DNA from: Ignavibacteriota bacterium | GTDB lineage: Bacteria > Bacteroidota > Ignavibacteria > Palsa-1295 | Assembly (NCBI GenBank): GCA_963787835.1 | Contig: CAWBEI010000006.1 | Location: 32,001-96,000 of the forward strand | DNA: 64,000 nt | Direction: 5' to 3' | Shown here: one piece after another, positions 1,853 to 8,235 of the stretch | How the letters are laid out: each line of letters opens with the position of its first letter | Position numbering within the stretch: position 1 is the first letter of the stretch | Notes under the pieces: generated by a model | The model's database searches: none | What the model was told of the DNA's origin: nothing | The model's input: the letters and a program-made list of their open reading frames with translations, nothing else | Program-made: the position numbers and the translations under genes

Positions 1853-4283
1853 TTATGCAGCCACCGGTGGCTGCATCTCCACACCATTCTTGAGCGAAGC
1901 CTGGCCTGAATTTAGCCGAATCAAATTTAGCGCCGAACCGGCTTCGAACCACGCGATGTGCTCCATGTTCATCGTGTGTTTGAGTGGGATGATTTCCACA
2001 GTGCCATCAGTATGCGTGACTTTCATGTTCACCGTCCGGACGGGATCGAGTTCGTGGAGATACTCGAGCGTAACAGTATCGCCTTCCTTGATCTTGTCGT
2101 AATCAGCAGAGTTCACGAACGTGAGCGGAAGAATTCCCTGCTTTTTCAAATTCGATTCGTGGATGCGAGCGAAGCTGCGGGCAATAACGGCGAGGCAGCC
2201 CAAATAGCGCGGTGACATCGCGGCGTGTTCGCGGCTCGATCCTTCGCCGTAGTTCTCATCGCCAACAATGACCCATCGTTTGCCGCGCGCTTTGTAATCG
2301 CGAGCGACGGCGGGAACGGGAAGGTTCTTTTCGTGCGTGTAGATGTTTGTCGTTGTGCCGATCTCACCGGACCATGCGTTGACAGCGCCGGTCAGCATGT
2401 TATCGGAGATCTTATCGAGATGCCCGCGATACTTCAGCCACGCGCCGGGCAGGGGAGATGTGATCAGTTGTCGTTTTGCCTTTGGTCTTGATAAGGACAG
2501 GCATGTTCTCAGAATCCACGGGGGAAACCATTGGCGAAAACGGTTCGAGAACCTGCAAACGCTCGCTTGTCGGCGTCACATCAATTTTAACAGTTGTGGA
2601 CTGCTTTACAGGAGGCACATATCCAATGCGACGTCCAATGTAACCATTTTTCGGCAATGGATCGACTTTCGGCGGTGGCTGCAAGCGATATTTCTTGCCA
2701 TCTTTGCCTTCTAATTCATCTTTGAGCGGATTGATGGAAAGATCGCCAGCCAACGCATACGCAACCACTACTTCCGGGCTTGCCACAAACGCAAGCGTGG
2801 CGGGATTCGCATCGTTACGGCCTGGGAAGTTTCTGTTGAAGCTATTGATGATCGTGTTGCGCTCGCCTTTTTTTACATCATCGCGTTTCCATTGGCCGAT
2901 GCACGGGCCGCAGGCATTAGAGAGAATTTCAGCGCCGATGCCTTCGAGCGATTTTAGTTGTTCATCACGGTCAACGGTGTTGCGAATGAGAGCGGAACCG
3001 GGATTTATCATCAGCGGTGATTTCGCATACCCGCCGTTCGCAATTGCTTGTTCAGCAATTTGCGCGGCTCGCGTGAGATCCTCGTAACTGGAATTGGTGC
3101 AGCTTCCAACGAGCGTGGTCGAGATCTTCATCGGATAATCATTCGCCTTGGCATCTGCAGCGAGATTGGAAACGGCATGTGCAAGATCGGGCGTGAACGG
3201 CCCATTGATAAGCGGCTCCAACTTCGAAAGATCGATCTCTAAAATTTCATCGAAATATTTTTCGGGATTTTGCTCGACATCCGCATCGGCGGTGAAGAGA
3301 TCCATGTGTTGTTTTGCAAGATCGGCAAGCTCCTTGCGGTCGGTGGCATTCATGTAGAGCACGCCATTGTCATCGAAAGGAAATACGGAGGTCGTAGCGC
3401 CGATCTCCGCGCCCATGTTCGTGACCGTGCCTTTGCCCGTCGTTGAAAGCGTTTTACAGCCGGGGCCGAAATATTCGATGATGCGATTCGTGCCGCCTTT
3501 GACGGTTAACTTTTCTGCAACATGCAGGATAATATCTTTCGGCGCTGCCCAACCGCTGAGTTCACCTGTGAGCTTTACGCCGACGAGTTTCGGATTCAAT
3601 ACTTCCCACGAAAACCCGGCCATTGCATCGACGGTATCTGCGCCACCGACACCAATGGCAATCATCGAAAGTCCGCCCATGTTGGGCGTGTGCGAATCGC
3701 TTCCTATAATTAGTCCGCCTGGGAACGCATAATTTTCCAGCACGACCTGATGGATAATTCCCGAACCGGGACCCCAGAAGCCAATGCCATATTTCGCACA
3801 GGCAGCTTTCAGGAAATGATAAACTTCGGTGTTGGTATCGAGCGCTTTGTTTAAGTCGCTTTCGGCGCCCTGATAGGCTTGAATGAGATGATCGCAGTGG
3901 ACACTTGAAGGTAGCGCAACCTGATCGCGCTGGGCTTGCATGAACTGGAGGATCGCCATTTGCGCGGTAGCATCCTGCATGATAACGCGATCAACTTTCA
4001 GCGCCAGAAAGCTTTTACCGCGCGTCAGGTCCTGGGACTGCGGATCGGCAAGATGGCCATACACGATCTTCTCCGCAAGCGTCAGCGGACGGTTCAACCG
4101 CTTACGAATGACGGCAAGCGTTTCTTCCATACGCTTATAGATGCCGGCGGCAAAATCGCGGGTGGTTTCGACGAACATTGCGCGCGGGTTGGAGCGTATC
4201 TCGCTCATCTCGACCGCCGCCGGTTCGACAAAAAAGGGTTGGTTTGCTATCGGCAGGTTCACGCCATTCGTTGCTTGGGCCAT
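1853..4283 (-). CDS. acnA: Aconitate hydratase (mitochondrial-type), split by a 1-nt frameshift at ~2447-2449
   Basis: MQDATAQMA, HCDH, DSHTPN, GSCTNSSYED, CGPCIGQW, NRNF and GEGSSREHAA motifs; TTDHISPA/GAWLKYRGHLD joined by removing one C. Confidence 0.95.
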
Positions 4284-4356
4284 AAAGTTTTCAATGTTGA
4301 ATTGTTGGAGAACTACGAACGTTTAACCATACGAAATTTGTGCCAGAATGTTGCTT
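4264..4356 (+). repeat. Copy 1 of a ~93-bp direct repeat (acn start codon plus upstream region)
   Basis: ccattcgttgcttgggccataaagttttcaatgttgaattgttggaga...accatacgaaatttgtgcca recurs 335 bp downstream. Confidence 0.95.
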
Positions 4357-4388
4357 ATCGACAAAGTGGGCAGCTACGGGAGAGAATT

Positions 4389-4589
4389 ATGAGACTAAAA
4401 GTAGATCGCAAATCGGATGCTTTGTATCTGCGGCTTGACGAATCCAAAATTGTGGATTCGGAAGAAGTCACGCCCGGCGTTGTGCTTGATTTTAACGAGC
4501 ACGATGAAGTGGTTGGCGTAGAAATTCTTCGTCTCTCGAAACGTGTCTCAATATCCGATATTTCGAAGGTTTCGCTGGAAACGGTTTAG
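4389..4589 (+). CDS. DUF2283 family small protein (putative antitoxin-like)
   Basis: MRLKVDRKSDALYLRLDESKIVDSEEVTPGVVLDFNEHDEVVGVEIL matches the DALY...D....VVGxEI pattern. Confidence 0.88.
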   Translation: MRLKVDRKSDALYLRLDESKIVDSEEVTPGVVLDFNEHDEVVGVEILRLSKRVSISDISKVSLETV

Positions 4590-4598
4590 CGAACCTGC

Positions 4599-4691
4599 CC
4601 ATTCGTTGCTTGGGCCATAAAGTTTTCAATGTTGAATTGTTGGAGATGTGCGAACGTTCAACCATACGAAATTTGTGCCAATTTGTTGCTT
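4599..4691 (+). repeat. Copy 2 of the ~93-bp direct repeat
   Basis: Near-identical to 4264-4356 with a few substitutions in the 3' half. Confidence 0.95.
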
Positions 4692-4725
4692 TTTGAATGG
4701 CAAAAGGCTTAAAGATCTTATAGAG

Positions 4726-5370
4726 ATGTCAATATCACCAGGCAAATATGAAATCGGAGAGAAGCTTGTATTGCCTTTGTTCATTTTTGAGGGCAATCAC
4801 ATGGAACTTGTGAGCGCTCTGAAGTTTCACAATTCTGAAGAGGGGCTACACACCTTGATGCCTCTAAGAAATAGGTATAAACAAGATCATTTCAATACCG
4901 ATGTAAGTGTACTGATAATTAATTTCGTTGCATCAGCAAGGATGCTCGTTGATCAATGCAGGCGAGCCGTGAATAAAAGCGCAAAGACCACACAATTTGT
5001 TCGCGAATTCGAGGCTGAAACATTGCGATTAGTGACAGGAAATGAGAATATTGCCATTGTTCACTTACTAAGCGACTATTGTGTACATTATTTCAATCCA
5101 TCACTAACGACGCATCACGATTTCAATCGCAGCTTCGAAAATAAAATGGCTCGTTTTACTGTTCCCAGAGATTCTCTTATTAGATTTGCAAAGCGTAAAT
5201 TAGTTAAGCTTAAGAGAGATGGATTAAACACACGTTCAGTTGAATTGGCGCTTGCTTTTCTTAATCAGGCGAGCAAAGATTTAGAGATTGAAGAGATGAT
5301 TGATGTCTATCATAAAATAACAAGCGCATTCTATTTCAGTATTTTAGAAAAAGCAAGAGCCGATGAGTGA
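4726..5370 (+). CDS. Hypothetical alpha-helical protein, HEPN-like family, degenerate RxxxxH (SDYCVH)
   Basis: AT-rich ORF; FEGN...NFVASARMLVD...LSDYCVHY pattern shared with the next ORF; the ORF-track start at 4648 lies inside the repeat, so ATG 4726 is preferred. Confidence 0.7.
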   Translation: MSISPGKYEIGEKLVLPLFIFEGNHMELVSALKFHNSEEGLHTLMPLRNRYKQDHFNTDVSVLIINFVASARMLVDQCRRAVNKSAKTTQFVREFEAETLRLVTGNENIAIVHLLSDYCVHYFNPSLTTHHDFNRSFENKMARFTVPRDSLIRFAKRKLVKLKRDGLNTRSVELALAFLNQASKDLEIEEMIDVYHKITSAFYFSILEKARADE

Positions 5371-6246
5371 TCAGTATGAAATAATGGAGCGAATGAACAA
5401 CACCCCTGAATGTGTGAGAGCCAGAAAAAGCAGGAGGTGTGATAGTTCACTGAAAGCCTTTGAAAGGAATGCTGATCGATTGCTGAAAACACTTGTTTTG
5501 CACAAGAATACAAAAGGAACAATGGTTTCGCCCAGCGGAAAAGGCATTCCAATGGCGAGTTTCGAAGTGGCTCGAAATTTCTTCAATTTTGTCATTATCG
5601 CAGTTGCCATTATTGATCATTTGAAGGAAATGGATGAGGATGTGTATGAAGGTCGCGGACCCGACAAACGCCCTCGACTTTCTTTAATGATCAAGGAGCT
5701 TAAAAAAAGCTTGACCTTCCAACTTGCTTACGGCATTCGCCAACAAATGCAACATTACGAGATTCCAGATATTTTTATCGGGTCGGGAGCCTTTGCAATG
5801 AGTTCAAGTAGCATATTACTCTGGGAAGGCTGGATGCAAAAACGATATCGAGAAGCCTATCAGCATCTCACGACGAACCCAGGAGTACATTTGCATGCAC
5901 TCGCTTTAAATTATCGGCTTGAATTACATAAACTATTTTCATTCTACTATGCTGAGCAGGCTGTTCACTTAAAACAAGAATATGAAATTTATGAGAAGCT
6001 TGCTTCTGAACTTAATGAATCACTATTCGAAATTGTTCGATCCATCGTCGGTAGTTCGTTATCAAACCCAGCTGTATCTCATGATATGTTCGAGCAAAAT
6101 CTACTCGGCAGGATTTCTTCGGATGATTGGGAACTACTTGATAATTCACGCGATATGAATTCGCGCGGGGAAGCTATGATAGAGGTTTTAAAAGGAATCA
6201 TGCTCTTATCGACGAGGAAAAAGTTCGAAGCTTATACAAATCCTGA
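5363..6246 (+). CDS. Hypothetical HEPN-like protein with RxxxxH (RQQMQH); 3' end uncertain (ORF track runs to 6664)
   Basis: FERN...EVARNFFNFV...IDH...IRQQMQHY; one extra A at ~6190 gives a natural end ...IDEEKVRSLYKS* at 6246, whereas the annotated tail reads through repeats and an antisense gene. Confidence 0.6.
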
Positions 6247-6320
6247 GAGCGGTTTGCCACCCCCATCGCCTCTCGCGGCAGGCGTCGCATCCCTCAACAG
6301 GGTTGGAGTGGGGCGGTGGG

Positions 6321-6404
6321 TGTCTGAACTGGGATTTATGGGATGCATGGAATTTTTGGGATGGGGAATGATCCCATTCATCCATTGCAACCCACGTTCA
6401 GACA
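6321..6404. repeat. Short inverted-repeat element TGTCTGAAC...GTTCAGACA with internal GGAT/ATCC units
   Basis: Perfect 9-bp terminal inverted repeats; a similar half-element lies at ~26505-26538. Confidence 0.7.
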
Positions 6405-6789: not shown

Positions 6790-7263
6790 ATGAAGAATAA
6801 ACTATCCTTGTTGGCTTTAGCATTTTTAGTCACGTTCCTATTCATTAATGTTGCTTCTGCGGGTGTTGTGCAGCTTTGCTATACGAACTCGCATGGAAAT
6901 ACCGGGTGCTGCTTTGCCTCCGGCAATTGCGCTAACATTACGTGTCCTCCCGGCTGGACGTGTGTGAATTATGCCACTGTTATAGGGGCATTCATCACCA
7001 AGAACTCCAATGGCGGGGCAAGCATAACGATGAACGGTGTAACGACGCCTCTTGCCAGCGAAGCATTTCAGAAGGCGTTCGATCAATTGACGAAGGAGTA
7101 TTTAGCAAAGGGTGCGAACAAAGCACAGATCTTGAAAGAATTGAGCGATCTTTGGAATGCGCCCAGTTCCTGGAAAGTCTCTGACAACCTGCTACAGAAG
7201 TACGCCAAGGAATTACATGCGAAGATCGTCAGCGCTTCTGGTTCTACCTCTGGTGGAAAATAG
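6790..7263 (+). CDS. Secreted hypothetical protein with a six-Cys N-terminal module
   Basis: Signal peptide MKNKLSLLALAFLVTFLFINVASA followed by C-x9-CC-x5-C-x4-C-x5-C. Confidence 0.8.
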   Translation: MKNKLSLLALAFLVTFLFINVASAGVVQLCYTNSHGNTGCCFASGNCANITCPPGWTCVNYATVIGAFITKNSNGGASITMNGVTTPLASEAFQKAFDQLTKEYLAKGANKAQILKELSDLWNAPSSWKVSDNLLQKYAKELHAKIVSASGSTSGGK

Positions 7264-7687: not shown

Positions 7688-8235
7688 TCGTAAGTCGATG
7701 ATCGGGTGGTTGCATCATTCAAAATAAATCTTACTTCGTTTGAGACTGCTGTTGATAATGCGTATTTTTTGGAAATGAATTGACGGGCACCCTATGATCA
7801 ATTAAAAATTAAGAACTAAAAATTAAGAATGGGGAAGGCTCGATAGTTCATTGACAATTAGACTGGGATTCACGGGAATATGATGAGATTTATTGGATAT
7901 ATCTCGCAGGGGTTCATGAAAAGTGACTTAAAGTAAAATATACCTCTTTAAATGAATATGTAAGAGAGATTTGATGGGCACCTATGTCTTCTGGAAATAT
8001 ACTCCGCGATTGAAATCTTGCTTTGTAAGAACCATTGATTTGTATTTCGGGGTTACAATTTGTTGTCCCATTATTGGACATTGGGATAATTTATGTCCTA
8101 TTTTGGGAAAGAAGTATATTCTTTCGTGAATTTTTAAATGGAAATGGAATTATATTACGCGCTTAACCTTTAAGTGTGTTCCAAATATTGCGATTTGGTT
8201 ACAATTAGGTTAATGGTTTTGCGAAGCGTATTGCG

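Follow-up and report, generated by a model that had tools for sequence, protein, structure and literature searches.

An overlapping pair of diverged HEPN-like genes from an Ignavibacteriota bacterium as a candidate two-part RNase within a large unnamed family

Two motifs are required in HEPN RNases; what each half contributes has so far had to be studied with engineered chimeras. HEPN proteins are characterized by an R-x4-6-H motif that has a polar residue after the arginine and closes helix 3, an acidic helix-2 residue in the arrangement E-x3-[KR], and an insert separating helices 2 and 3 (PMC3710099). The same paper gives operons that combine two HEPN families, such as Bxe_C0808 with AbiU2 (PMC3710099, Table 1). 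HepS from the Gifsy-1 prophage is a solo HEPN abortive-infection anticodon nuclease that forms a homotetramer from one gene (PMC13043305). Esos, a tested anti-phage system from an integron cassette, is a single gene with an HEPN-like domain alone (10.1101/2024.07.02.601686), and DefensePredictor mentions four HEPN systems (PMC13092281). Las1 chimeras with three of the four R/H residues are described in a preprint as still cutting with altered fidelity, with two losses crippling the enzyme, and single motif mutations of Cas13 are described as impairing cleavage, so that a tolerance of three out of four residues is no general rule (10.1101/760058). The preprint lists only two architectures, homodimers acting in trans and the heterodimer that Cas13 forms in cis (10.1101/760058). 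A literature search for a two-gene HEPN heterodimer returned only this Las1 preprint, most subscription papers being outside its reach.

The locus described here lies in a stretch of 64,000 nucleotides from an Ignavibacteriota bacterium, called the window below, and is made up of two overlapping genes with the following features.

4726..5370, forward strand: gene A, 214 aa, comprising the HEPN-like core alone, without the N-terminal helices and the C-terminal helical domain of the family
5363..5370, forward strand: overlap of A and B, 8 nt, with the stop of A over the start of B
5363..6246, forward strand: gene B, 294 aa in its database form, comprising the HEPN-like core and a C-terminal helical domain
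6186..6193, forward strand: homopolymer region in gene B with a likely 1-nt assembly deletion, indicated by the database protein and a Logan contig

The initial annotation had described two AT-rich open reading frames with an 8-nt overlap and an end at 6246, and this description is borne out. The GC content of A and B together is 0.398, compared with 0.501 ± 0.042 for the genome, and among 2,375 windows of 1.5 kb taken across the genome, 1 is equally low. The 8-nt overlap suggests translational coupling of A and B; at the metagenome locus L013, the overlap is 23 nt. The end at 6246 is right despite an assembled frame of 433 aa, which reads through to 6664. In the databases, a 294-aa protein agrees fully with B over residues 1 to 277 and then continues in another frame to the stop at 6244-6246. 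One Logan contig shows an extra A behind 6189, an observation that is weak alone (depth 2.4) and possibly stems from the same campaign. Full-length homologues of B have 295 to 303 aa, and the aconitase (1853-4283) and enolase (480-1810) genes of the window are each broken into two frames. These observations together place the end of B at 6246 and indicate that the window is likely 1 base short near 6189. The 433-aa form is therefore rejected as an indel artefact. Orthologous aconitases have open frames of 811 to 870 aa in most relatives, and the assembly likely carries homopolymer indel errors that touch other findings in this genome as well. A GTG-started form of A with 240 aa is also rejected, since the extension lies within a repeat copy and the homologues have 194 to 223 aa. 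A scan for promoters and terminators around the pair found nothing in excess of shuffled sequences, and the listed public sequencing runs holding the locus include no RNA datasets.

The surroundings of the pair contain a further gene and two repeats.

4389..4589, forward strand: DUF2283 gene, a neighbour of the pair outside the module
4599..4696, no strand assigned: 98-nt direct repeat, second of two copies, with 91% identity to 4264-4361 (aconitase start region), forming the left border of the inserted pair
6319..6368, no strand assigned: dispersed intergenic repeat 3' of B, with 35 matches in the genome and internal GGGAT units of 9 to 10 nt

The dispersed repeat at 6319-6368 supports non-coding DNA after 6246. 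A second dispersed intergenic repeat family, also with many genome copies, is found at about 7775-7860. The two copies of the 98-nt repeat (4264-4361 and 4599-4696) bracket the DUF2283 gene and include the aconitase start codon with its upstream DNA, and the relative genome G006 shows the same duplication with other inserts (L053, 271-365 and 1116-1208). Neither A nor B is present at the aconitase-upstream site in any of the five relatives examined (5 of the 13 with a match), each of which holds different genes there. The site resembles an integration hotspot that duplicates the 5' region of the gene, and comparison with the relatives identifies the A+B pair as an accessory insertion at a variable site. 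An accessory island beside DUF2283 had been proposed earlier; the AT-rich accessory insertion stands, and the DUF2283 gene proves incidental. As part of the module, it is rejected, being absent from the other two pair loci according to ORF lists and translated flank comparison, and in G006, it is present at the aconitase-upstream site without the pair. Four more DUF2283 copies with 30 to 40% identity occur in the genome. A 157-aa ORF at 6790-7263 has a signal-like N-terminus and a cysteine-rich segment but no family match, and it is 87 to 97% conserved in three of the five relatives at this site.

Compared directly, A and B show no significant similarity (BLASTP E of 1.7; hhalign probability of 0.6). 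The common sequence pattern noted earlier for the two proteins is thus not significant in pairwise comparison, and it becomes significant at the level of profiles. A profile of 139 family proteins, from which all 12 known clade members (5 A and 7 B) were excluded, matches A with an E of 1e-36 (113 bits) and B with an E of 6e-28 (84 bits) at Z=1, although this test is not fully independent because the 139 proteins were retrieved using a profile containing A and B. The paralogy of A and B is upheld by these matches, and a single-gene protein in the relative G010 is matched by both the A and the B profiles. The profile comparisons place A and B, as diverged members, in a single large family that is unnamed and whose R-x4-H motif is invariant. 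A profile of seven sequences retrieves 1,669 clusters (50% identity) at an E of ≤0.001 among 1.84 billion cluster representatives, and the family members analysed here are drawn from the best 150 of these 1,669 matches. A word-based protein search with a mixed alignment returned only two proteins.

The pair had been proposed as a candidate undescribed module, and neither A nor B is matched by a model in Pfam, NCBIfam, or PADLOC. Of 130 family members compared with Pfam and PADLOC, no more than one matches any given model at an E of ≤0.01; the one hit to a HEPN Pfam model is weak and is to pEK499_p136 (E of 0.006). An NCBIfam model is matched by 0 of 131 members. The PHROG phrog_12680, which is without annotation, matches 92 of the 131 members of the family alignment with a best E of 1e-16 but does not match B itself. 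Searches of PDB sequences with two profiles gave no match below an E of 0.28. No confirmed relative was found in the viral contigs scanned and none in phage genomes. The closest clusters in the ESM Atlas are unnamed; an AceK-regulatory cluster is returned for both A and B (0.89 to 0.93), and this kinship is set aside as a weak lead. In a FastTree tree of 149 rows, with rows of >400 aa excluded, the A clade and the B clade are separate with a support of 99 each, and one further member is added to each. The tree does not place the two clades as sisters. The two proteins diverge equally, with identities of 45% (A) and 43% (B) to L013 and of 36% and 35% to G006. Family members with long C-terminal fusions (703, 718, and 552 aa; L025 139-2247, P0121, and P0033) contain no second family domain, and the L025 fusion protein has no Pfam match.

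The two proteins differ in the residues that they have kept from the family, most visibly at four positions.

4900..4911, forward strand: residues D59-V62 of A, the equivalent of E-x2-R; both E and R are replaced in all five A-clade proteins
5071..5088, forward strand: motif S116-x4-H121 of A (SDYCVH, residues 116 to 121) at the family R-x4-H position
5564..5575, forward strand: helix-2 motif E68-x2-R71 of B; in the B clade, E is present in six and R in seven of seven proteins
5738..5755, forward strand: motif R126-x4-H131 of B (RQQMQH, residues 126 to 131); R is present in seven and H in six of seven B-clade proteins

The arginine and the histidine of R-x4-H are each found in 139 of 139 family proteins. 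The residue after the motif arginine is N, Q, H, or D in most family members, and B contains R-Q-x3-H. S116 of A and R126 of B share one alignment column, which confirms that SDYCVH and RQQMQH occupy equivalent positions, as first noted. The helix-2 E-x2-R motif of the family (E in 114 and R in 128 of 139) differs in spacing from the published HEPN arrangement E-x3-[KR]. All five A proteins have lost E199 (114 of 139 in the family), R202 (128 of 139), and W325 (129 of 139), and all seven B proteins have lost R219 (133 of 139), Y247 (135), F263 (135), and W381 (133), counts that are not independent because the sequences are few and related. Genomic context is at hand for three pair loci, with two A and four B proteins being without context. 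The helix-2 histidine is lost in both A and B. B retains the helix-2 E-x2-R motif, the motif arginine, a conserved tryptophan, and the C-terminal domain, and A retains the motif histidine, the small dimer-axis residue, and several core aromatics. At the other two full pair loci (G006 and L013), A and B both keep R-x4-H, and all three full pair loci retain at least three of the four motif R/H residues. A clean split into an active and an inactive partner, as the initial annotation had proposed, is not supported in that form: the A clade keeps the motif histidine in five of five and the arginine in three of five proteins, with the change from R to S confined to the remaining two, and B has lost the histidine in one of seven proteins together with other family-wide residues. 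On the alignment, the pattern points to reciprocal degeneration, not to one live and one dead copy.

AlphaFold2 models of A and B reach pLDDT values of 92.7 and 95.3, respectively. In both models, the core has four helices, helices 2 and 3 are separated by an insert helix, and the motif ends helix 3 and is followed by a β-hairpin. The modelled helices of A span residues 9 to 35, 47 to 84, 107 to 121 (ending at H121), and 188 to 213, with the insert at 89 to 105; those of B span residues 25 to 46, 61 to 95, 117 to 131 (ending at H131), and 177 to 202, with the insert at 106 to 114. The family shows the motif of the HEPN superfamily (R-x4-6-H with a polar next residue), and the predicted models of A and B show its placement at the end of helix 3 of an up-down core. 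Among the best 50 VIA-align rows, HEPN chains occur in seven for A (7ae2, 1jog, 1ylm, 8xdj, 6of2, 5yep, and 1wwp), with 7ae2 at a Z of 8.2 and an rmsd of 3.9 for 125 aligned residues, and in eight for B (1jog, 8xdj, 7ae2 at a Z of 8.2; 6of2, 1ylm, 1wwp, 3jrt, and 9dun). The entries 6of2 and 5yep are taken here to be HEPN proteins. Generic bundles match or exceed these structural scores, with p130Cas at a Z of 8.8 to 8.9 compared with 7 to 8.2 for HEPN chains. Foldseek searches with the A and B models against the PDB, and with B against viral models, gave nothing at an E of ≤0.001. Because the structural scores tie with those of generic bundles, the HEPN assignment rests on motif, placement, and context together, and on this combined basis, the A/B family is very probably of the HEPN type. 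The earlier HEPN-like label is backed by motif and placement.

The proposal of a heterodimer in the initial annotation finds support at the level of prediction. The A:B complex obtains a score of 0.86 compared with 0.63 for the best control, with the control keeping A scoring 0.63. Of 157 solved complexes, 116 attain the mark applied, as do 2 of 215 mismatched pairs. Close cousins, represented by colicin pairs, also reach it in 10 of 12 cases. The complex prediction modelled the A:B heterodimer from alignments of A and B with 126 family rows in common, so that a homodimer signal by itself could give rise to the pose. With these common rows, with cousins passing, and with A:A and B:B outside the comparison, the score speaks for compatibility with a family dimer, not for a preference. 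Runs agree in at least 96% of the contacts, and the partner pLDDT is at least 82. The pose is pseudo-twofold: the interface comprises 35 positions in A and 40 in B, which have 29 alignment columns in common. The predicted interface holds N66 opposite N75 and both motif histidines (A 119 to 124 and B 129 to 134). The dimer-axis position is alanine in 119 of 139 family proteins and in five of five A proteins and is bulkier in six of seven B proteins; in the model, A69 of A touches I78 of B. R71 of B contacts N24 of A, and A is without the mirror arginine, with the mirror asparagine of B being relaxed (five of seven). The C-terminal domain of B adds model contacts through E244 and W256, found in six of six full-length B proteins. 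The asymmetries of the pose coincide with the clade-specific changes, and the bulky axis residue of B would speak against a B:B dimer.

The gene order A then B is found at all three loci with context, in accordance with the expected co-occurrence of the two genes: in G000 and G006, which belong to the same genus, and in the metagenome locus L013, at three different sites with different neighbours. The pair is rare. Among 401 genomes of the class, it occurs in two, both of one genus, with a single gene in five and a spurious match in one. A weak match in G428 is rejected as a gene owing to internal stops. A shallow profile matched 2 of 401 genomes in a phylum sample, and the 35 genomes of the taxonomic family contain the pair in two and a single gene in two. 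In G006, A, B, and their neighbours, which are ruvB-like and gcvT-like, show apparent frameshifts, and A in an alternative frame would extend to overlap the start of B. Thirteen single-gene loci (2 to 14 kb) contain no second family gene. A scan of 34 + 31 chosen neighbours at single-gene loci finds a defence or toxin-antitoxin neighbour at 6 of these 13, a raw count without a background rate.

L009: TIR effector-like neighbour
L021: MNT-HepT neighbour
L023: ThsB-like TIR neighbour with 8xMP
L024: methylase-Mrr neighbour
L026: SIR2-like neighbour
L029: putative Abi and HigBA neighbours

At L009, a gene for a zinc-ribbon and TIR/NDT-like effector (5113-6030, reverse strand) lies directly 3' of the single-gene member in G010. 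At L029, the single-gene member WP_095466730.1 (5800-6684) is part of a cassette-like array of Vibrio sp. HDW18, beside the putative abortive-infection gene and HigBA. Two integrases flank the single-gene member at L027. At the three pair loci there is no defence island, and a small HEPN gene is nearby only in G006.

The explanation favoured here, as a quite plausible but tentative one, is that A and B form a subfunctionalised heterodimeric HEPN-type RNase with one composite RNA-cutting site, likely acting as an abortive-infection-type defence effector. A mixed two-part enzyme appears likely because each clade has lost different conserved residues and the pair recurs at unrelated sites. The single-gene relatives would work as homodimers. 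With two copies co-expressed, each may have lost a different part of what the homodimer needs, leading to interdependence. At the shared A:B site, A would give a histidine and a packing surface, and B would give the two arginines and its own histidine together with the C-terminal domain. The R-to-S change of A in the window would leave three of the four catalytic residues, as in the Las1 chimeras that cut RNA. By analogy with solo HEPN defence proteins, A:B may be an infection-triggered RNase like HepS, with tRNA or another RNA as the substrate and a comparable trigger.

The same pair may be read as a toxin with its antitoxin, with B being a toxic homodimeric RNase and A a dead upstream paralogue that keeps B locked up in A:B dimers without activity until A is removed under stress or infection. 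The upstream location of A is the usual antitoxin position (PMC3710099), all five A proteins are without the helix-2 E-x2-R motif and two of five without the motif arginine, the predicted A:B pose occupies the dimer face and would block B:B, and B is not seen without A at the three loci with context. This reading is rather unlikely: A preserves the full R-x4-H motif in three of five proteins and the histidine in all, several family-wide residues and, in one protein, the histidine are missing from B as well, and the bulky axis residue of B would disfavour the very B:B dimer that is to be held in check. The 13 loci with a lone family gene further indicate that the family needs no such antitoxin. 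Two independent accessory genes captured as one cassette, each forming its own homodimer or with A slowly decaying, are unlikely. Against them, the order and overlap of the genes are kept at 35 to 45% identity across three different sites, the divergence of A is no faster than that of B, and the losses are reciprocal, several of them at the predicted interface. In their favour are the position at a hotspot with a changing set of unrelated genes, the lack of a sister relationship in the tree, the two-HEPN-family operons in Table 1 of PMC3710099, and a complex score that may mirror family likeness.

A family outside HEPN, or one without nuclease function, is very unlikely; it would be a four-helix bundle with a coincidental R-x4-H motif and a binding or regulatory use. 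A and B match no HEPN Pfam model, the one weak hit among 130 members is to pEK499_p136, no solved structure is matched by sequence, and the fold scores lie within the range of common bundles. Against this stand the conserved glutamate in helix 2 and the recurrence of HEPN chains in the top structural rows for both models. The preferred reading of a heterodimeric RNase extends, with somewhat more reserve, to a possible natural HEPN nuclease acting in trans, in which reciprocal loss would have turned a homodimeric defence RNase into an obligate A:B heterodimer. This would be a third architecture beside homodimers and the Cas13 cis pair. It would still tolerate one missing residue among the four catalytic ones, on whichever side, and would sit atop a family of solo HEPN-like defence RNases with more than 1,600 clusters. 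If true, a natural pair with reciprocal losses, including variants missing one R or H, would make each half directly testable and would show the path from a homodimeric defence enzyme to an obligate heterodimer with one half freed for sensing or control. The single-gene family (1,669 clusters), unmodelled by Pfam, NCBIfam, and PADLOC and often beside defence genes, is a candidate for phage tests.

In relation to described systems, the family of A and B resembles the stand-alone HEPN proteins Cthe_2314, pEK499_p136, and 3jrt (PMC3710099) in the R-x4-H motif with a polar next residue, the acidic helix-2 residue, and the four-helix core with an insert. The integron-cassette HEPN protein 3jrt aligns with the B model at a Z of 7.1 and an rmsd of 4.2 for 139 residues. 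The helix-2 E-x2-R motif, the pairing of two diverged paralogues, and the absence of any matching named model set A and B apart from these families. HepS (PMC13043305) shares the single-domain HEPN organization, the lack of an antitoxin, the accessory location, and the composite site of two motifs. It differs in being encoded by one gene where two are present here, and the search of PDB sequences found no sequence link with it. By analogy, HepS might show how the single-gene members work and how the pair is triggered. Esos is likened by description to the single-gene member in the Vibrio cassette-like array, and it could belong to the single-gene family (10.1101/2024.07.02.601686).

The best HEPN structural matches come from the MNT-HEPN systems (HepT/MntA; 7ae2, 8xdj, 1ylm, and 1jog), with a Z of 7.5 to 8.2, and these systems have a two-gene layout too. 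Unlike MNT-HEPN type VII systems, the upstream gene here is the HEPN-like paralogue A and no nucleotidyltransferase, and the A and B proteins are about twice as long. No minimal nucleotidyltransferase antitoxin is found upstream of B; A takes that place, preceded by DUF2283. The homodimers of Las1, RNase L, Ire1, and Csm6 and the tandem HEPN domains of Cas13 share the composite site of two motifs, with Cas13 being a natural asymmetric pair. Unlike both Las1-type enzymes and Cas13, the predicted A:B complex would be an asymmetric pair that is natural, acts in trans, and is assembled from two genes.
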